A DNA stretch of 35,667 bases, from UHGV virus genome UHGV-0093623; one strand, 5' to 3'. The notes under the pieces were generated by a model that was given only the letters and a program-made list of their open reading frames with translations, did not search any database and was not told the origin of the DNA. This DNA is from a virus. The translations under genes and the position numbers were made by a program. This document shows, piece after piece, positions 168 to 24,348 of this stretch (its first letter is position 1; the number at the start of each line of letters is the position of its first letter).

Positions 168-425
168 TCACGCAGTAAACTCCTTCACCAGCGTTTCAAA
201 CTGGCTTACCTGTCCTTCCAGTTCCGCCACGCAATCCACCAGCTCATCCACCGCCTTTTGTGTGCGGTGTTTTGCCTGCAGCAGATCACTAAGCGCCGGA
301 GTAAGCTGCTTGCGGAGCGTATCTTTTTTCACGCTCGTTTTTTCCATCTGTTCAGCACAACGAAGCATCTCCTGCGCCTGCCGACGAAGTTGTTCCGGTG
401 AAACAGTGATTGTTCTGTTGTTCAA
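168..425 (-). CDS. hypothetical 85-aa protein, last gene of the replication operon
   Basis: ORF track; apparent TTG start overlapping the DnaB-like stop by 4 bp; no recognisable motif. Confidence 0.35.
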   Translation of the reverse strand: MNNRTITVSPEQLRRQAQEMLRCAEQMEKTSVKKDTLRKQLTPALSDLLQAKHRTQKAVDELVDCVAELEGQVSQFETLVKEFTA

Positions 426-1822
426 AATAAACGCTCCGTTTTACTGCCCGACATGCGGTTATTGCTGTATCTGCGCGGATTGCCCGGCGTCATGGGTGTG
501 GAAAGAACCCGGGCACTCTCCTGGTCCACAGGCAGAAAATGTCCGTTATGAAAACGCCGGTAAATGGTCCCGAGCGTGCCATTACGCTGTTTCGTGATGT
601 TGATTTCTGCTATGCCTCTGGCCTGAGTTTCCGGGTTGTATACCTCATCCCTGTAAAGCATCAGAATGATGTCGGCATCCGCCTCGATTTCCCCGGAGTT
701 TTTCAGGTCCGAGTTCATTGGGCGTTTATTGGGTCTGGATTCCACGCCGCGGGAGAGCTGGCTCAGAGCAATCAGCGGAAAACCGCCGGATTTTGCCAGG
801 CTTTTAAGTCCCTTTGAGATTTCCCCCACCGCAAGGTCGTGACGCCCCGTGCTGCGGGTTTTAATCAGGCCGAGGTAATCGACCACCACCAGCGCCGTTT
901 CCGGGTGTTTCATCCGGTGGTGCTTCGTGGTTGCACATATCTCATCAATGGTCAGGTTTGCCTGGTCCACCATCCAGATATTACGCCCCGTCATTCGTCC
1001 CACGCCCTGCGAGAAACGCGCCCAGTCTTCATCTTCAAAACGGGCAACAGACTTAAGACGGGATACCGGCATTCCACCGGCAGCAGACACCATACGTTCA
1101 CCAATCTGGATGTTCGCCATCTCCATGGTGAACAGAAGCACGCCATGCCCCTGCTCAGTCACCTTGTCGATGATGTCCAGCGCAAGTTCGGTTTTCCCCA
1201 TCGAAGGACGGGCGGCAATGAATACCAGGTCTCCGGGCTCCATACCGCCCGTTTTTGCGTCCAGTTCATCAATACCGGTCATCAGCGCCCTGGATTTCTC
1301 CAGTCCCTGATTGCGGCATTCAACACGGTCGACCACTTCCGGAAGGACATCATCAATGTGAACCGGCTGAATGACGCCCTTTCCGGTCGACAGTGAGGCC
1401 ATCATGTTCTGCGCATCCTTCAGGGCATCCTCGGCTGCTTCACAGGTATACGCATCACGTAAATTCTGTAATGCTTCAGTCAGTGTTTTTTCTGCATCAC
1501 GCAGTGCGGCATTGCGCCGCAACGCTGCGACATAGTGCTCCAGTGAAGACTTCACCCAGGTTTTGCGTCCGGTGTCGGTAATCACCGGGGCAAGTTCCGG
1601 CATCTCATTGCACAGCAGTACGGGGTCAATGACGCCGGATATGCGAGCCTGTCTGCAAATCCCCGCGTAAATATCCCGGTACTGACGCACAAAAAATACA
1701 TCCGCCGGAAGTGTGGCCAGAATATCCATCACTTCCGGATCGGCCCCACGCAGAAAAAACGCACCGATGACAGCGCCTTCCAGGTCATCGTTACGCCATG
1801 CCGGGGTGTTCTGGCTGGTCAT
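422..1822 (-). CDS. replicative DNA helicase, DnaB family
   Basis: 466 aa; Walker A-like IAARPSMGKTELALD; DnaB-like C-terminal region; ATG overlaps the upstream gene stop (ATGA). Confidence 0.88.
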   Translation of the reverse strand: MTSQNTPAWRNDDLEGAVIGAFFLRGADPEVMDILATLPADVFFVRQYRDIYAGICRQARISGVIDPVLLCNEMPELAPVITDTGRKTWVKSSLEHYVAALRRNAALRDAEKTLTEALQNLRDAYTCEAAEDALKDAQNMMASLSTGKGVIQPVHIDDVLPEVVDRVECRNQGLEKSRALMTGIDELDAKTGGMEPGDLVFIAARPSMGKTELALDIIDKVTEQGHGVLLFTMEMANIQIGERMVSAAGGMPVSRLKSVARFEDEDWARFSQGVGRMTGRNIWMVDQANLTIDEICATTKHHRMKHPETALVVVDYLGLIKTRSTGRHDLAVGEISKGLKSLAKSGGFPLIALSQLSRGVESRPNKRPMNSDLKNSGEIEADADIILMLYRDEVYNPETQARGIAEINITKQRNGTLGTIYRRFHNGHFLPVDQESARVLSTPMTPGNPRRYSNNRMSGSKTERLF

Positions 1823-2727
1823 GCGGCAACACCTCCGATACGAGAACGGTAGCTGGGCCAGTTAAACGACAACCAGTTGCGCCCGCCATCGGTGATCCTG
1901 TCGGCAATCCGGGGACTGATGAACGCCCACAATTCTTCCGGTGAAAGGTTGCTGATCAGGATAGTTGGCAAAATACCCTCATACCGGGCATTGATAATTT
2001 CCTGCAAAATGGCCATTTCAGCCGCACTGCCAAACTGAACGCCGACTTCGTCGACAATCAGCAAATCCAGTGACGCATAATGCTCAATGACGTCATCCGC
2101 TGTTTTTTCACTGTCATTCCGCCAGCAGTTTTTCACAGCCCGGGTAAGGCGCATCACGTCGGTGATCTCCACACTGGCCAGATAGTTACGGATGATGTGT
2201 TTTGCCATTGATACCGCCAGATGATTTTTCCCGGTACCGCAACTGCCGGTCATAACAAGACTGGTACCGTTCTCCAGCATATCTGGCCAGTTCTCCGCAT
2301 AGCGGCGACAGGCCGCAAGATTTCTGGCTGCGTCAGGATTAACCTCCAGATAATTATCAAACTCGCAGTCCCGAAAACGCAGAGCAATTCCGGCGTTATC
2401 AGTCAGTTCTTCCGCCTTGAGGGACGACAGTTCCATGGTCAAATCACTGGCCTCAGCGATCAAGCAGTCAGGGCAGCATGAAATTTTTTCTCTGTCCTCG
2501 CCATTACGATCGATCCACACCAGTATATGCGTACGATATTTACCGTGTTTTTCGCAATATCCGCGACCTTCACGCATCAGGCAGGAACGATAAGGCCATG
2601 GCTTTTCGCCCTTCTGAGCAAATGCAATCTCTGCCCGTAACTCATCCATTTCTGCCCGTAACTCATCCATTCGCGCCTGTAGTCTTGTTTGTTTCTCACG
2701 TTGGTCAATCGTCATCATCGCTGTCAC
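1819..2727 (-). CDS. DnaC/IstB-like AAA+ helicase loader
   Basis: 302 aa; Walker A GSCGTGKNHLA and Walker B LLIVDEVG; Cys-rich N-terminal region; start may be GTG at 2727 or the ATG 9 bp inside. Confidence 0.8.
   Translation of the reverse strand: MTAMMTIDQREKQTRLQARMDELRAEMDELRAEIAFAQKGEKPWPYRSCLMREGRGYCEKHGKYRTHILVWIDRNGEDREKISCCPDCLIAEASDLTMELSSLKAEELTDNAGIALRFRDCEFDNYLEVNPDAARNLAACRRYAENWPDMLENGTSLVMTGSCGTGKNHLAVSMAKHIIRNYLASVEITDVMRLTRAVKNCWRNDSEKTADDVIEHYASLDLLIVDEVGVQFGSAAEMAILQEIINARYEGILPTILISNLSPEELWAFISPRIADRITDGGRNWLSFNWPSYRSRIGGVAA
2629..2672. repeat. 21-bp in-frame tandem duplication (2 copies) inside the DnaC-like gene
   Basis: ctgcccgtaactcatccatt repeated back to back; encodes MDELRAE-MDELRAE. 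Confidence 0.7.
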
Positions 2728-2728
2728 C

Positions 2729-3721
2729 TCAGAATGTCAATTTGTTACTGGATTTACCGAATTTGTCAGACATGGCTCCCAGGCCAGCCAGGACATCGAC
2801 CTGTCGCTGTCGCCCACCTCCGTGAGCGGCTGGCTGTTGCCAGTAATCTTCGAAGTGACGATCGGGTCCAAAGAACGTCGCAGCCTGCTTCACGAACTGT
2901 GTGCCGGTATTTCCTGTAGCACGTACCCAGGCGGCATACCGCTTCACGCCATCAAGCATGGTCTCCGGTTTTATTCCCTCCCTGATACGGGCTTTCCAGG
3001 CTTTGAAGGCTGCTGACTTGGAATTGCCACCAGCACGTTTGGGATATTCCTGCCAGGCCTGTTCAAATTCCGGTGAATATTCCTGTCGGGCAGAACGCGC
3101 TGGCGCAGACGCGTCAGCGGATGCATCAATAGTGTTTTTAGTCTCCGTTGTAATCTCTGTAGTAATCTCTGTATTTGTATCAACATTCGGCGTATCCCCT
3201 GTTCCGTTATGACGTCGGGGGGTGTTCCGTTTTAACGTAATAGCTGTATCGCTGATTGCATTATTGCTGTTACTTTCTGGCGAAACAGAAGAAGGTGTGG
3301 TGATGGCCGCAATTGCCTGTGGGTTGATCCCGACAAACAAAATATTGCTGCATTTCACCCCATCGAGCATTTCCACCGTGCGTAAATCCAGAGTAATAAA
3401 CCCTGCATCGCGCAGACGCTTCAGCGCATCTGCGGTTTCCCTTTTCCCGAAACCAAACTGCTCAGCAAACGCCTGGTAGCTTCTTTGCAGTTTGTCGCCC
3501 TGAAAACGCTTGCGATATCCCAACAACGCTCCGGTGTGCTCATCCCTGACCTCTGTCGGGCGGTACCAGTAAACGATCTCTGAAAGCAGAGCGATAGCCG
3601 TCGCATCCGGACGCCCACTGGGTAGTCGAATATATTTCCACCAGTTCGCAGGTGTAACATTGCCGGAAATATTAATTTGACCAATAGCCATAACTTCCGG
3701 TGTGGGGGCGTAACGGCTCAT
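2729..3721 (-). CDS. phage replication initiator / replisome organiser (lambda O-like position)
   Basis: 330 aa immediately upstream of the loader and helicase genes; two-domain layout with a low-complexity linker carrying tandem DNA repeats; family call is by position and general resemblance. Confidence 0.6.
   Translation of the reverse strand: MSRYAPTPEVMAIGQINISGNVTPANWWKYIRLPSGRPDATAIALLSEIVYWYRPTEVRDEHTGALLGYRKRFQGDKLQRSYQAFAEQFGFGKRETADALKRLRDAGFITLDLRTVEMLDGVKCSNILFVGINPQAIAAITTPSSVSPESNSNNAISDTAITLKRNTPRRHNGTGDTPNVDTNTEITTEITTETKNTIDASADASAPARSARQEYSPEFEQAWQEYPKRAGGNSKSAAFKAWKARIREGIKPETMLDGVKRYAAWVRATGNTGTQFVKQAATFFGPDRHFEDYWQQPAAHGGGRQRQVDVLAGLGAMSDKFGKSSNKLTF
3146..3175. repeat. 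iteron-like tandem 12-bp repeat (gtaatctctgta x2) inside the initiator gene; candidate origin element
   Basis: perfect tandem pair encoding EITTEITT in the linker; lambda ori also lies inside O. Confidence 0.4.
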
Positions 3722-4017
3722 ACAACCTCCTTCCGCGGCATGAGAATTGTGTAGCCACGCGCAGGTTGTAGTCTGGCTTTTGCATCAATAGTAAGCGTTG
3801 CAATTTTTCGGATATGAAGATAACCAGCTCTTTCCAGTGCCAGGGTTTCCCTGAATATCGCTTGCTTAGAACAACAGCAGAAATCAGCAAGCACCTGATG
3901 ATCAATAACTCTCTCGCCTTCACCGTCTGAAGAACCCGACATCAAAACACGCAACATAATTAGGCGCTGAATCGGGTTATCGAAAGCACATCCGCACACA
4001 AACTGAAAACAGTTCAC
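3718..4017 (-). CDS. hypothetical 99-aa protein with probable HTH
   Basis: ORF track; apparent GTG start overlapping the upstream stop; 4-bp overlap with the initiator gene. Confidence 0.45.
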   Translation of the reverse strand: MNCFQFVCGCAFDNPIQRLIMLRVLMSGSSDGEGERVIDHQVLADFCCCSKQAIFRETLALERAGYLHIRKIATLTIDAKARLQPARGYTILMPRKEVV

Positions 4018-4238
4018 GCCACACCTCCCAGACGCTTAAACATTTTTCCAGACAGAAATACCGCCAGAGGGTAACTGATGGTGTAGCTACGCCCCTGTAG
4101 TTCGCACACGACTTTCTGGCTTTCAGCGTTGACTAGGCAAACCCGCAGAACGTGACCGTTGCTGGTGGCGAACCACTGCCCCACACGGGGGCAACGGTTG
4201 TATCGGTGATACAGGGAATTAACGATGTGGCGGATCAT
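4014..4238 (-). CDS. hypothetical 74-aa protein
   Basis: ATGA overlaps on both sides. Confidence 0.4.
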   Translation of the reverse strand: MIRHIVNSLYHRYNRCPRVGQWFATSNGHVLRVCLVNAESQKVVCELQGRSYTISYPLAVFLSGKMFKRLGGVA

Positions 4239-6330: not shown

Positions 6331-6418
6331 AGATACTTTGTTATCCAACGATGTTAACCGCGGGAATCCAAAGTATCAAGAAATTCTGTTACTTTAGTAT
6401 CAACAGCCATGAGAGGAG
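6331..6418. promoter_or_regulatory. divergent early promoter/operator region (OR-like)
   Basis: minus-strand TTGATA-N17-TAACAT (plus 6374-6379 and 6351-6356); three copies of a GTATCA-core motif (6332-6340 inverted, 6369-6377, 6396-6404); cI RBS GAGAGGAG at 6411-6418. Confidence 0.5.
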
Positions 6419-6425
6419 AAGAAAA

Positions 6426-7082
6426 ATGAAGTCTTTAGGTGAACGTCTCATCAACGCACGGCAAAAAGCTGGGTTAACACAAGATGCGTTGGCTAAAAAA
6501 GCTGGGATCACCAGAGTTGCAATCAGTAAAGCCGAGCAAGGCCTTACAAAAAGTTTCAACGGTGACACCCTTTTTAAAGTTGCAGCTGCACTGCGGTGTT
6601 CACCGCAGTGGCTTCAGAACGGAGATGAAAAAGATAAGCATTGGGAAAATAATGTTAAGAGCTGCCCACAGAGAGACACAGCACACTCTTACCCTGTAAT
6701 TAACTGGGTTCAGGCAGGATTATTCGCAACTTCTGGTGATGACTACAACATGTATGATCAGGATAATTGGAGGCATTCTGTAAAATACGCTGGTGAGAGG
6801 GGGTTCTGGCTGGAAGTGCACGGAGACTCAATGACTTCGCCCGTAGGAATAACATTTCCTGAAGGAATGTCGATCCTTGTCAACCCAGATAAAGAAGTTT
6901 TTTCAGGGTGTTACGTCATCGCCAGAAAAAAATCCACCAATGAAGCAACATTCAAAAAATATATTTCTGACATGGGAAAGGCGTTTCTAAAGCCCCTTAA
7001 TCCACAATATCCAATCATAGAAATGGACAATGATTGCGAAATAGTAGGTGTTGTGGTTGATGCCAGGTGGGATATTTTCTGA
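6426..7082 (+). CDS. CI-like prophage repressor (HTH_XRE + S24 LexA-like peptidase)
   Basis: HTH LTQDALAKKAGITRVAISKAEQG; C-terminal GDSM and downstream Lys (ARKK); start chosen at ATG 6426 with RBS. Confidence 0.85.
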   Translation: MKSLGERLINARQKAGLTQDALAKKAGITRVAISKAEQGLTKSFNGDTLFKVAAALRCSPQWLQNGDEKDKHWENNVKSCPQRDTAHSYPVINWVQAGLFATSGDDYNMYDQDNWRHSVKYAGERGFWLEVHGDSMTSPVGITFPEGMSILVNPDKEVFSGCYVIARKKSTNEATFKKYISDMGKAFLKPLNPQYPIIEMDNDCEIVGVVVDARWDIF

Positions 7083-20277: not shown

Positions 20278-20301
20278 CAAACCCGCTCAGGCGGGTTTTT
20301 T
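20278..20301 (+). terminator. intrinsic terminator
   Basis: aaacccgc-tcag-gcgggtttttt. Confidence 0.5.
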
Positions 20302-20360
20302 ATTATCTGCTTTAAATATATTATTAAAATATAAAAAATACTTGTTACTAATAAAATCAA

Positions 20361-20531
20361 TCAGGCTACAGCTTTAAGATTTGTCTGGAATACTTTGTTG
20401 CAATGAGGGCAGATCAAAAGGGCACCTTTTTGTACTCTTGAAAAACTGTGTTCTGACTCTTGGGTGCAGTTTGGGCAGGAACATTTAACGAGATAATTAC
20501 GGCGTGATTTTGAGTTTTTACGTTCTGACAT
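20361..20531 (-). CDS. small zinc-ribbon protein (56 aa from internal ATG)
   Basis: CxxC...CxxC (CPNCTQ...CPHCNK); AGGA 9 nt upstream of ATG 20531. Confidence 0.5.
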   Translation of the reverse strand: MSERKNSKSRRNYLVKCSCPNCTQESEHSFSRVQKGALLICPHCNKVFQTNLKAVA

Positions 20532-20750
20532 AGGCTTTTCCTGTATAAATGGCCGTATACAGTACACTAAATATGAAAACATTTCTCGTATTATTATTTT
20601 ATATATGACTTTCTTTCAAAATAATTACCCACATTTTTAATGTGTATGTTTTTTTAGCGCCGTTGAGAACAACGTGTGCTGTCAAAACTACCCCGTAGAC
20701 TCCGAGCTTTTCAAACATATTGCACCATCCGTGTACATCGGGGTGAGGAT

Positions 20751-20966
20751 ATGAAATCAATGGATAAGTTAACAACAGGTGTTGCCTATGGCACATCGGC
20801 GGGTAATGCTGGTTTCTGGGCATTGCAGTTACTCGATAAAGTAACTCCGTCACAGTGGGCTGCAATCGGTGTGCTGGGTAGCCTGGTTTTTGGCCTGCTG
20901 ACGTATCTGACAAATCTTTATTTCAAGATTAAAGAAGACAGGCGTAAGGCTGCGAGAGGAGAGTAA
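20751..20966 (+). CDS. essQ: class II holin (pinholin, S21-like) with dual start MKSM
   Basis: 71 aa; GAGGA RBS; two hydrophobic helices; adjacent to a SAR endolysin. Confidence 0.85.
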
Positions 20967-20970
20967 TCCA

Positions 20971-21278
20971 ATGACTCAAGACTATGAACTGGTTGTGAAA
21001 GGAGTCCGTAATTTTGAGAATAAAGTTACGGTAACTGTAGCCTTACAGGACAAAGAACGCTTTGACGGTGAAATTTTTGACCTGGATGTCGCCATGGACC
21101 GTGTTGAAGGAGCTGCGCTGGAGTTTTATGAGGCAGCAGCCAGAAGGAGCGTCCGGCAAGTCTTCCTGGAAGTAGCAGAAAAATTGTCAGAAAAAGTTGA
21201 GTCTTATCTGCAGCATCAGTACTCCTTTAAGATTGAAAATCCTGCCAATAAGCACGAGCGTCCTCATCATAAATATCT

Positions 21279-21282
<4 letters not shown>
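20971..21282 (+). CDS. ydfR: DUF1327-type protein, YdfR-like (103 aa)
   Basis: position between holin and endolysin as in Qin; length match. Confidence 0.7.
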
Positions 21283-22306
<1,024 letters not shown>

Positions 22307-22669
22307 GGTAATATTAAATCGGAACATTTACATCGCGGAATGTAAAATTTAAATAAAAAGGACTCTTCCATGAGCCAAAATTCCTGAAATCTTAAGGGTA
22401 AGATAAAAGGTCTTAATCAGAATGACACGTTTTATTAATAAATAAAGCTATTCTTTCATTGCTGTGTTTTTCTTTACAAAAGTAATCCTTGCTATGGGTG
22501 GTTAATCATGCGTTAATGGTGTTCTGGTTTGTTACAAATTTATCTGAAGCAGTCATTGTTATAATTTTATTATTTGTACCTCTTGAGATTTCCTTGTTGG
22601 TTTTTCTCTCTGATATTTTTTTTTCGGACCATTCTGCCCAAGGGCTAATTTCTTCAAAAGGTAATAATT

Positions 22670-22882
22670 ATGTCTAACAAAATGACTGGTTTAGTGAAAT
22701 GGTTTAACCCTGAAAAAGGTTTTGGTTTCATCACGCCGAAAGATGGCAGCAAAGATGTGTTTGTCCATTTCTCAGCAATTCAGAGCAACGATTTCAAAAC
22801 ATTAACTGAGAATCAGGAAGTTGAATTTGGTATTGAGAACGGACCTAAAGGTCCTGCCGCTGTTCATGTAGTGGCGCTTTGA
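22670..22882 (+). CDS. cspI: cold-shock protein CspI
   Basis: 70 aa, [21 protein letters not shown]... Confidence 0.9.
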
Positions 22883-23087
22883 GGTAGACAATATTACAAA
22901 CCATATTCACTTTAGATGCCCGTGTTGTCATGGTTCCCAGTATAGAACATCATCTTTTGATGTTTCTGACATGAATCCTTTCGGGGCAAAATGTATCTTT
23001 TGTAAATCAATGATGATTACATTTGATAATATTTCACAATACTTAAATGCCAGCCGTCTGTCGTTGGATTTAAAAAAGTGAAAATGA

Positions 23088-23109
23088 AGGCTCCTTCGGG
23101 AGCTTTTTT
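23088..23109 (+). terminator. intrinsic terminator
   Basis: ggctcc-ttc-gggagc then T-run. Confidence 0.5.
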
Positions 23110-23153
23110 GCTTGGTGTCTATTCGATGGGTACTCACATACTACGGTAACATC

Positions 23154-23384
23154 ATGAAAAAAATCATAGTTTTTTTTAACTCTGAACCAGCAGTGGTAGT
23201 GCCAGCGATGACTGGAGTTAACACCATCATGCGTGAATATCCAAATGGCGAAAAAACACACCTTACTGTAATGGCCGCAGGGTTTCCATCTCTGACCGGA
23301 GATCATAAAGTCATTTATGTAGCCGCGGATCGACATGTTACTTCAGAAGAAATTCTGGAAGCAGCAATAAGGCTCTTGAGTTGA
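23154..23384 (+). CDS. hypothetical 76-aa protein
   Basis: ORF track (ATG 23154 preferred); no clear RBS. Confidence 0.4.
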   Translation: MKKIIVFFNSEPAVVVPAMTGVNTIMREYPNGEKTHLTVMAAGFPSLTGDHKVIYVAADRHVTSEEILEAAIRLLS

Positions 23385-23555
23385 TTTGATGCTATTGCAT
23401 TGATAATTCAGGAAAATTCTCTTTGTCTGTTTGTGTAAAATTTAGACTATCGTATGTTGATTATTGCGATGTTTCATCTTATCTTTTACACGTTTGCACC
23501 ATATAATCGACTTACTGTGTAACTGGAAAGTCATAACAGACTAAAAGAGGAAATG

Positions 23556-23729
23556 ATGAATATTGAAAACTTAAAAACAAAAGCAGAAGCAGATATTTCT
23601 GAATATATAACAAAAAAAATTATTGAACTTAAGAAAAAGACCGGGAAAGAAGTTACCAGTATTCAGTTTACCGCACGGGAAAAAATGACGGGTCTTGAAA
23701 GCTATGATGTCAAGATTAATTTAATCTGA
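23556..23729 (+). CDS. gnsB: GnsA/GnsB-family small protein (57 aa)
   Basis: MNIENLKTKAEADISEYITKKIIELKKKTGKEVTSIQFTAREKMTGLESYDVKINLI; AAGAGG RBS; not in ORF track. Confidence 0.8.
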   Translation: MNIENLKTKAEADISEYITKKIIELKKKTGKEVTSIQFTAREKMTGLESYDVKINLI

Positions 23730-23880
23730 TGTATTCAATAATAAAATTTATCCATAAACCTCGTTTTTACGGGGTTTTGTTATATTTGAATGGTTCCGAA
23801 TATCTAAATCACAATTGTTGATGGTTTTTATTAAACCAATGCAGTCCGGCTCAGGAGTGAGAGAAGCCGGACGTTATGGT

Positions 23881-24291
23881 TTAGAGTGGTAAGATCTGTG
23901 TAGTTTTCTGGATGCTTTCAGTAAATAGTAATGAATTATCAAAGGTATAGTAATATCTTTTTTGTTCGTGGATATTTGTAACCCACCGAAAAACTCCTGC
24001 TTTAGCAAGGTTTCTTCTGTATTCCTGAAATGTGATCTCTCTGGATTTCAGCTTATTAGAGGTCGTTTCTATAAGATGCCTATCCTTTGAAAATTTGACA
24101 GACACAATGTTTTTTAGGCCCTTTAATAACACTGTATTATCATTTTTTAATACAATATGAACATTCTCTGTGGCTAAATAGTAAATGTAATGTGAGACAT
24201 TGTGACGTTTTAGCTCAGAATAAAACCATTGATAGTTTAAATCGTTTCGAACTTTATCAAATATTTGTTTAAAAATGACTACCTGATCCAT
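23881..24291 (-). CDS. ydfO: DUF1398-type protein, YdfO-like (136 aa from internal Met)
   Basis: length and position match Qin ydfO; weak sequence recollection. Confidence 0.6.
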
Positions 24292-24348
24292 AGATAAACC
24301 TTCCATGTGATATGAGGGGGCGTAGTCTGCACGATTATCTAAATTGCT

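Follow-up and report, generated by a model that had tools for sequence, protein, structure and literature searches.

A tandem 12-mer array beside candidate iterons in the initiator gene of an Escherichia coli lambdoid prophage: a probable replication origin built with a DNA module found in many phyla

Replication origins that lie inside the gene of their own initiator, with iterons next to an AT-rich tract, have been a classical arrangement since phage lambda (1979 onwards), and RepA_N plasmids likewise keep their origin inside rep. Here we describe a related arrangement in the virus genome UHGV-0093623, a 35,667-nucleotide (nt) stretch of DNA (the window, analysed at its full length) that is an E. 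coli lambdoid prophage. The element in question is a tandem array of the 12-mer TACAGAGAnTAC, which lies together with two 23-base-pair (bp) repeats in the linker of a 330-amino-acid replication initiator; positions 3120-3240 are probably the origin of the prophage. In lambda, gene O contains both the annotated iterons, spaced by 20, 24 and 23 bp, and an A-rich tract that comes after them. Iterons and AT-rich tract occupy the middle of O, and the AT-rich tract is strand-asymmetric (PMC7466680, PMC5043065). According to PMC7466680, which cites Dodson 1986 and Wickner & McKenney 1987, two lambda iterons plus the AT-rich tract are enough for unwinding and for in vitro replication. For the 13-mers of E. 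coli oriC and RK2 oriV the exact sequence matters, beyond AT content (PMC5043065). Phage SPP1 provides a further described case, as its gene 38 (encoding the replisome organizer G38P) contains its own origin, oriL, centrally, in the order N-domain, repeats GAAACGACA / GAAAAAGACAC, AT-rich periodic stretch and C-domain of the Phg_2220_C type.

The locus in the window resembles the origins of lambda and the Shiga toxin (Stx) phages, which have four to six iterons, in that the candidate origin likewise lies between the DNA-binding N-domain and the helicase-recruiting C-domain of the initiator. On the C-domain side of dyad repeats spaced by about 20-24 bp comes an easily melted tract that is A-rich on the coding strand, and in lambdoid phages, as here, it is the iterons that vary from phage to phage and the downstream part that is common to them. 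Unlike lambda, the window has just two clear iterons and an initiator outside the Phage_rep_O family, it encodes a phage DnaC-like loader and a phage DnaB-like helicase where lambda combines P with host DnaB, and its AT-rich side is a conserved 12-mer tandem array of which lambda has no recognisable form. The array shares with the oriC and RK2 13-mers its character of AT-rich direct repeats of 12-13 bp adjoining known or, in the window, presumed initiator-binding sites; it differs from them in having no sequence similarity, in lying inside a coding region and in being conserved across phyla and unrelated iteron sets. SPP1 gene 38/oriL, which was checked as a potential carrier already studied by experiment, has no TACAGAGAnTAC array, and the SPP1 N-domain lacks the L..YW helix described below. 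The parts of the initiator gene are as follows.

2729-3721, minus strand: replication initiator gene, 330 amino acids, WP_000092416-type open reading frame (ORF); contains the candidate origin
3287-3721, minus strand: N-terminal winged-helix domain, amino acids 1-145, with conserved L..YW helix; AlphaFold2 model, predicted local distance difference test (pLDDT) score 89.9
3216-3238, minus strand: candidate iteron 1, 23-bp unit ACGTTAAAACGGAACACCCCCCG (gene sense), one mismatch to ACGTTNNAACGT
3193-3215, minus strand: candidate iteron 2, 23-bp unit ACGTCATAACGGAACAGGGGATA (gene sense), two mismatches to the consensus
3138-3173, minus strand: 12-mer array, reading TACAGAGATTAC TACAGAGATTAC AACGGAGACTAA, on the C-domain side of the candidate iterons
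3120-3139, minus strand: A-tract and junction AAAAACACTATTGATGCATC, end of the AT-rich stretch; homology with the type C (phiP27-type) and type D genes introduced below begins here
2729-3128, minus strand: C-terminal domain, amino acids about 199-330, a module common to three other N-domain types

In gene sense the order is thus winged-helix N-domain, two dyad repeats spaced by 23 bp, 12-mer array and C-domain, and the repeats lie inside the initiator ORF between the modelled N-domain and the C-domain module. The perfect tandem pair that a first-pass annotation of this DNA had placed at 3146-3175 is real and was located correctly to within a few bases: on the plus strand gtaatctctgta occupies 3150-3161, an identical gtaatctctgta follows at 3162-3173, and tttgtatcaacattc comes next at 3174-3188. 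Tandem Repeats Finder (TRF) reports a period of 12 with 2.7 copies across 3142-3173 (score 50). The degenerate extra copies which that annotation had suggested looking for are represented by a third copy, ttagtctccgtt, at 3138-3149, matching the unit at 8 of 12 positions when counted by hand, and close relatives carry between one and three copies, some having three perfect copies and one a single perfect copy. The 12-mer gave 38 matches at up to three mismatches over the whole window, against about 19 expected, with no cluster beyond 3138-3173; one site with two mismatches lies outside the array at 3237-3248. The array encodes NTEITTEITTETKN on the minus strand, in agreement with the EITTEITT peptide first noted there. 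Inside the window alone the repeat is statistically unremarkable, being one of 13 TRF rows at a score of at least 30. Its significance comes from comparison, namely from the varying copy number in relatives and the recurrence of the array across phyla.

The candidate iterons form a direct repeat at 3193-3238 with a spacing of 23 and a unit composed of ACGTyAwAACGG, AACA and a C/G-rich spacer. The window sequences ACGTTAAAACGG and ACGTCATAACGG match an iteron consensus of the ACGTTnnAACGT type with one and two mismatches respectively, a fit that is found just 0.31 times per kb when both strands of the window are counted. The same consensus is present in three to four copies in phages Geobacillus PT9.1 and Acinetobacter IME-AB2, which are relatives in the same N-domain, and is less complete in Bacillus Athena. 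Among seven relatives the sole substitution in the stretch falls in the spacer between the two 23-bp units. A phased degenerate core, yGrwACAr, which was discerned by eye upstream of the two clear iterons, was dropped as unsupported by autocorrelation, and only two iterons are claimed. Judged by sequence, the pair at 3193-3238 makes better iteron candidates than the 12-mers.

Comparison of initiator genes that share the C-domain of the window separates the repeats adjoining the N-domain from the array. In megablast searches of phages and E. coli genomes, window positions 2729-3172 are common to Stx-phage 'replication protein O' genes at 92-94% identity, with homology that passes through the 12-mer array and ends exactly at 3172, while positions 2729 to about 3131-3133 are common to phiP27 L17 and others. 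At the protein level the C-terminal part alone aligns with Stx-phage 'O' and phiP27 L17 (84% and 71% identity respectively, in local BLASTP alignments that include part of the linker), and the N-domains are not detectably similar. Eighty IMG/VR loci with the C-domain of the window fall into four N-domain types, each of which reads, in gene sense, N-domain, its own repeats of about 23 bp, direct repeats of 12 or 24 bp and the conserved C-domain.

Type A (window): ACGTyAwAACGG-AACA-C/G-rich unit, two copies 23 bp apart, then TACAGAGATTAC in one to three copies
Type B (Stx 'O'): CGCGGAnnnGGGAAAnCC, three to four copies at a 23-bp period, then the same 12-mer family in four to five copies
Type C (phiP27, HTH_36): TCAGAWTCTGA, five copies, then AAAACATGATCCGCAAG, two copies at a 24-bp period
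Type D (L051): TTCACCAGGTGGTG-like repeat, three copies, then GAACCAGTCAAW, about three copies at a 12-bp period

As in lambda-type origins, the iterons co-vary with the N-domain and the downstream part is shared, both in these four types and in the wider sample described below. Types A and B differ in N-domain and in 23-bp repeats yet share the array; the 12-mer is therefore not the specificity element. The homology breakpoints at 3131-3133 and 3172 coincide exactly with the two ends of the segment formed by the 12-mers and the A-tract, and from these sequence boundaries the segment appears to be a recombination joint for the exchange of N- and C-modules. The C-domain is presumed, from its sequence relationships, to recruit a helicase loader or primosome.

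The N-domain by itself (amino acids 1-140), used as a protein query, returned relatives at 72-43% identity, which were thus found independently of any DNA motif. Four of these (L092, L094, L095 and L098) have the same DNA array behind dyad repeats of their own.

L092, metagenome-assembled genome GCA_963593725.1: N-domain 72% identical; array TACAGAGATTAC TACAGAGACTAC TACAGAGATTAA
L094, Arsenophonus nasoniae: N-domain 64% identical; array TACAGAGACTAC TACAGAGATTAC AACAAAGAATAA
L098 and L095, gut-metagenome ParA/ParB elements: N-domain about 48% identical; L098 array TACAGAGAATAC TACAGAGAATAC GGAGGAGATTAC after TACAAAAyTTTGTA repeats

The array of L098 and L095 is translated as QRILQRIRRRL and as KYKEYYRKYRGDY. 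In the Firmicutes-type ParA/ParB elements L095-L098, some of which stand beside a serine recombinase, the initiator is split in two, the N-domain ORF stopping just past the array and a separate DUF6017 ORF coming next. The number of TACAAAAyTTTGTA repeats differs among L095-L098 (about two versus five to six), which shifts the reading frame through the array. A tblastn search of isolated phages with the N-domain and linker supplied a second sample independent of the DNA motif, from which six phages were opened. Five of the six (Geobacillus PT9.1 gp41, Acinetobacter qsb1, Acinetobacter IME-AB2 gp51, Bacillus Athena gp14 and Bacillus PM1 ORF9) have three to four dyad repeats at a 22-23-bp period, of the ACGTTnnAACGT type in the three closest, followed directly by two to four copies of TACAGAGAnTAC. 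The sixth, Eggerthella LE2-3, has a degenerate version of the array.

The reverse approach, a pattern scan for ACAGAGAnTACnACAGAGA in one genome per species, gave at least 120 matches, of which 115 were assessed. By our own arithmetic about 70 matches to a 17-base pattern are expected by chance in 596 Gb; the raw count therefore means little and the argument rests on context. Upstream periodicity was defined as a direct-repeat identity of at least 0.45 in the 110 nt directly 5' of the array. It was found, among the matches listed, for 71 of the 115 genome arrays, as compared with 1.4% of 2,082 random windows from the same loci, and the period was 22 or 23 nt in 58 of those 71. A scan of IMG/VR, likewise with at least 120 matches, gave 94 periodic arrays out of 117, again among the matches listed, with a period of 22-23 nt in 87 of the 94 and of 23 nt in 82. 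The 5' repeats vary between loci, so that the array follows dozens of unrelated iteron sets, beginning 0-20 nt past the last iteron. Carriers include Pseudomonas, Acinetobacter, Marinobacter, Aeromonas, Yersinia, Serratia, Pantoea, Xenorhabdus, Photobacterium, Halomonas and Desulfuromonas; Bacillus, Clostridium, Lachnospiraceae, Pelosinus and Caldanaerobacter; the Chloroflexi Amarolinea and Thermanaerothrix, the cyanobacterium Chlorogloeopsis, Gracilibacteria and Fibrobacteres; and also bacteria of the candidate phyla radiation (CPR), gut Firmicutes elements and Staphylococcus phages. A minority of the scan matches are unrelated coding repeats, in RDYDRD or TETTTE surface proteins (L110, L116, L127, L146, L172, L181 and L200). 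With a 55-nt array query, matches were obtained in at least 140 isolated phages and 62 plasmids of the collections searched, nearly always under genes annotated 'replication initiation O-like', 'DnaD-like', 'primosomal protein I' or 'replisome organizer'. On this comparative evidence the TACAGAGAnTAC 12-mer is a DNA module that stands beside lineage-specific repeats in phages, plasmids and integrated elements of many phyla. With the consensus WACAGAGAnTAC and two to five copies, it accompanies, as far as the sequences compared indicate, a large superfamily of mobile-element initiators that have an 'L..YW' winged-helix N-domain, whatever their iterons or C-domains.

The domains that travel with the array were then compared. 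In the AlphaFold2 model, which was predicted confidently, the N-domain of the window is a winged helix with extra strands. Foldseek comparison with the PDB gave weak matches, to the TFE/TFIIE winged helix (E 7e-3) and to the DnaD N-domain (2v79; E 0.03, template modelling score 0.41-0.50), and nothing at E <= 0.001. We call the domain no more than a winged helix because it has neither a family match nor a Foldseek match at that threshold. The likeness to DnaD consists of a winged helix with extra elements over 131 aligned columns, and relatives are annotated 'DnaD domain protein'; set against this, the match is weak and Pfam DnaD_N is not matched at threshold, and the annotations of the relatives probably reflect their C-domains. 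An alignment of 66 carriers has no invariant column, while conservation reaches 90% or more at L46, Y51, W52, G64 and L103 (window numbering) and in the TExTTE columns. The carrier N-domains have no Pfam model, and those carrier C-domains that Pfam recognises belong to at least five families (DUF6017 in 11, Phg_2220_C in 10, DnaB_2 in five, DnaT in two and DnaA_N in two). Types C and D have the C-domain of the window, HTH_36-like N-domains that lack the YW helix, and other repeats. Because the C-domains vary and types C and D differ in their repeats, the array tracks the N-domain superfamily and not the helicase-recruiting domain. The N-domain is presumed, from the model, to be the iteron-binding module.

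Several observations bear on whether the array is maintained as DNA or as protein. It is translated as TEITTE, QRLLQRL or YREY in different carriers, and the frames of 68 iteron-associated arrays are TExTTE in 64, LQRLLQR in three and YRDY in one, to which the two Firmicutes frames (L098 and L095) are added. The argument from three frames is accordingly weaker than first judged, and the claim of constraint at the DNA level rests on the minority frames together with non-coding cases, third positions and GC constancy. The array of L189 contains a stop codon, the next gene beginning 25 nt on, and in L144 and L202 the array is intergenic. The mobilizable 8.4-kb Bacillus velezensis plasmid pBamNAU-B3a (NC_022531, L225 1400-1540) has PM1-like iterons (CCTACAGGGAAAGA, three to four copies), TACAGAGATTAC in three copies and the first part of the sequence that encodes the PM1 C-domain, with no ORF for an initiator N-domain; from its sequence the site may be either an origin-only copy or a gene remnant, and the plasmid could use, or interfere with, the initiator of a PM1-like phage. 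Codon usage was analysed in the array copy next to two pattern-matched copies, that is, in a copy unforced by the search pattern. In this partly circular test conservation extends to all three third codon positions (A 0.74, G 0.59 and T 0.69), while base nine, which is the second base of a codon, varies freely (T.38, A.34 and C.22). The unforced copy uses GAG over GAA in a ratio of 30:2, as against 38% GAG among glutamate codons elsewhere in the same genes, and ACA for 36 of 39 threonine codons, as against 28% elsewhere in them. The GC content of the array is 0.36 +/- 0.05 across flanking GC from 0.21 to 0.65. Because of the three frames, the non-coding occurrences, the fixed third positions beside a free second position, the codon bias and the constant GC, the sequences point to a constraint that acts on DNA. 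A purely coding linker, with free synonymous sites, one frame and occurrence in ORFs only, is not what was found.

The first-pass annotation had also proposed checking for a flanking AT-rich stretch, and the repeat in fact coincides with one. GC falls to 0.33 at 3120-3179, the minimum of the initiator gene, with 0.36 in the array itself and 0.52 in the two 23-bp units at 3193-3238. By nearest-neighbour energies the array is the least stable stretch of 40, 60 and 80 bp in the replication cluster (422-4238), and over the 35.7-kb window it ranks among the least stable 1.5-2% for lengths of 40 and 60 bp and at 6.9% for 80 bp. An AT-rich tract of low stability thus lies on the C-domain side of the iterons, as in lambda-type origins, and short direct repeats in the least stable DNA adjoin presumed initiator-binding sites, as in DNA-unwinding elements. 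The least stable and most AT-rich DNA of the window as a whole lies at about 20300-24300, far from the replication genes.

We consider it fairly probable, on these comparisons, that 3120-3240 is the prophage origin and works in the following way. The winged-helix N-domain of the initiator would bind the two 23-bp units at 3193-3238, which would be lineage-specific iterons, the iteron-bound initiator would open the duplex at the 12-mer array and A-tract (3120-3173), and the C-domain with the phage DnaC-like loader would then place the phage DnaB-like helicase on the opened site. Transcription of the early operon would cross the site, as in lambda. A number of points weigh against this model. 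The window has just two clear iterons where lambda has four, and the 130 nt upstream show no significant autocorrelation, the best 20-25-nt periodicity (0.346) occurring in 256 of 2000 shuffles. The array, at 34-36% GC, has no more than a moderate AT content, and less stable stretches occur at several other places in the window. The variation from one to three copies among near-identical prophages indicates tolerance. The predominance of the TExTTE frame (64 of 68) makes a contribution at the protein level possible, and TExTTE as the most innocuous linker peptide can explain the frame preference. The codon test is circular in so far as a DNA pattern was used to pick the loci and slippage links the copies of one array, which is mitigated by the same codons being found in the protein-ascertained sample. 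Finally, conservation exceeds what melting needs, which suggests specific recognition, so the label of a DNA-unwinding element may be incomplete.

This last point leads to the best surviving alternative, which we regard as unlikely although it partly overlaps the origin model: the array would be a sequence-specific recognition element and not a passive melting region. It might act as a single strand that a conserved surface of the L..YW winged-helix domain captures, comparable to the DnaA-trios or the DnaD recognition element of B. subtilis oriC; alternatively, it might be bound by some component that all bacteria possess, for example helicase, primase or RNA polymerase. The near-identity of the 12-mers from E. 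coli to Firmicutes, cyanobacteria, Chloroflexi and CPR, conserved at the nucleotide level, speaks for such recognition, as does the association of the array with the N-domain superfamily and with no particular C-domain, types C and D without the YW helix carrying other repeats. The helicase-loading systems differ among carriers, however, and SPP1, a studied phage with its origin in a gene, lacks the motif. Recognition and unwinding are moreover compatible, so this alternative overlaps the preferred explanation.

That the 12-mers are themselves the iterons, the duplex sites of the initiator's N-domain on which the origin is built, was the original proposal for this repeat, and we now think it improbable. 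They are in tandem, lie in the inter-domain linker beside an A-tract and reach three to five copies in relatives, and the L..YW helix common to all carriers could in principle read a conserved site. Defined iterons, however, co-vary with their initiator, whereas the same 12-mer occurs with N-domains not detectably homologous (type B) and adjoins 22-23-bp repeats that are wholly different across dozens of iteron sets. Its period of 12 bp is not helically phased (about 11 or 22 bp), the 22-23-bp period typical of iterons belonging to the adjoining repeats, and one close relative retains a single perfect copy. What survives of the proposal is a probable origin, as the linker has origin anatomy at the inter-domain position that is equivalent to lambda, with N-domain, dyad repeats of about 23 bp, AT-rich stretch and C-domain in the lambda order. 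Least credible, and very improbable in our judgement, is a repeat without cis function, in which slippage has made a low-complexity linker, TEITTEITTE, and the origin lies in the neighbouring repeats or elsewhere: copy number is indeed polymorphic, the dominant frame yields a hydrophilic T/E-rich linker and the DnaC-like gene holds another perfect in-frame tandem repeat, but the array is read in three frames, occurs at ORF ends, between genes and on a plasmid without an initiator ORF, fixes third positions while leaving the second free, uses GAG and ACA against the preference of its genes, keeps its GC constant in genomes of 21-65% GC and sits directly 3' of periodic repeats in 71 of 115 and 94 of 117 of the scan matches listed.

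A broader reading, to which we give somewhat less than even credence, is that TACAGAGAnTAC arrays are a pan-bacterial, sequence-specific origin element, the common opening or loading half of origins in the very large L..YW superfamily of phage, plasmid and integrative-element initiators, which would be recognised as DNA while only the iterons diversify. If so, it is probably one single strand that is read, by a conserved surface of the initiator or by a universal replisome component. For the prophage itself the comparison provides a probable origin at 3120-3240 in which a specificity part, the iterons, is separated from a generic part, the 12-mer array. If functional, the array would be an unusually well-conserved cis element of replication initiation; it would let origins in phages, phage-plasmids and integrative elements be located by a simple sequence signature, applicable to thousands of uncharacterised mobile elements, and would mark a recombination joint for the exchange of initiator modules. 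It would also raise the question of what reads the 12-mer and why the opening sites of so many origins must keep their sequence. The array can be recoded synonymously with the protein unchanged, which gives a clean experimental handle.

Literature searches with the motif strings (both strands and peptide versions) returned unrelated primer or sequence matches only in the openly searchable literature, subscription-only literature being beyond reach. Keyword searches returned background on lambda, Stx, Eru and SPP1 and no description of the 12-mer, the Eru paper being silent on origins. We could not find an earlier account of a sequence-conserved 12-mer array across phyla and unrelated iteron sets, which is apparently new, a prior description in subscription-only literature being possible.

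The initiator gene is part of a replication cluster on the minus strand, in the order 99-amino-acid ORF, initiator, DnaC/IstB-like loader and DnaB-like helicase.

3718-4017, minus strand: 99-amino-acid ORF preceding the 330-amino-acid initiator and overlapping its start by 4 nt
1819-2727, minus strand: DnaC/IstB-like helicase loader gene (PF01695, E 4e-14; PHROG 50)
422-1822, minus strand: DnaB-like replicative helicase gene (PF03796, E 8e-74; PHROG 19)
6351-7082: LexA/CI-type repressor; leftwards of it, on the minus strand, Rha/Ash regulators and small ORFs

The initiator ORF matches PHROG 270 'replication initiation protein' (E 5e-78), and its C-terminal part matches the PHROG categories 'DnaD-like helicase loader' and 'primosomal protein'. 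In NZ_CP195498 (E. coli 20AR0300) a copy of the gene with 100% identity occupies 2057122-2058114 and is annotated 'hypothetical protein' by RefSeq. No Pfam or NCBIfam family was found for the initiator, the whole protein being compared with Pfam at E <= 0.01, and the N-domain at E <= 1 gave a weak HTH_36 match only, so that it does not belong to Phage_rep_O, the lambda O family. The earlier designation of the gene as 'O-like' is thus apt for its function, given PHROG 270 and the helicase-loading genes downstream, and not for its family. The 99-amino-acid ORF aligns with positions 1-93 of PHROG 4617 'replication initiation protein' and is named 'transcriptional regulator' by RefSeq in one strain.

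In three E. coli strains (PU-1, AF6 and NCTC9112; L005-L007) the N-domain, linker and most of the C-domain are as in the initiator of the window, and the genes diverge in the last 110 nt or so (about 35 residues). Downstream of these initiators are PerC and methyltransferase genes instead of the DnaC- and DnaB-like genes, and the comparison suggests that the extreme C-terminus of the initiator is matched to its helicase-loading partner. Just past lambda iteron 4, the lambda segment GACACAAAAGACACTATT (L091 520-537) agrees with window positions 3122-3139, GAGACTAAAAACACTATT, at 15 of 18 nt by hand count, the two encoding TKDTI and TKNTI respectively; this match may be left over from an ancestor that the two AT-rich sides had in common, or may be due to chance. 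The other perfect in-frame tandem repeat of the window, at 2630-2671 near the 5' end of the DnaC-like gene, consists of two 21-bp copies of TCTGCCCGTAACTCATCCATT, encodes MDELRAE twice and is unchanged in strain R14 (L002 1402-1443).

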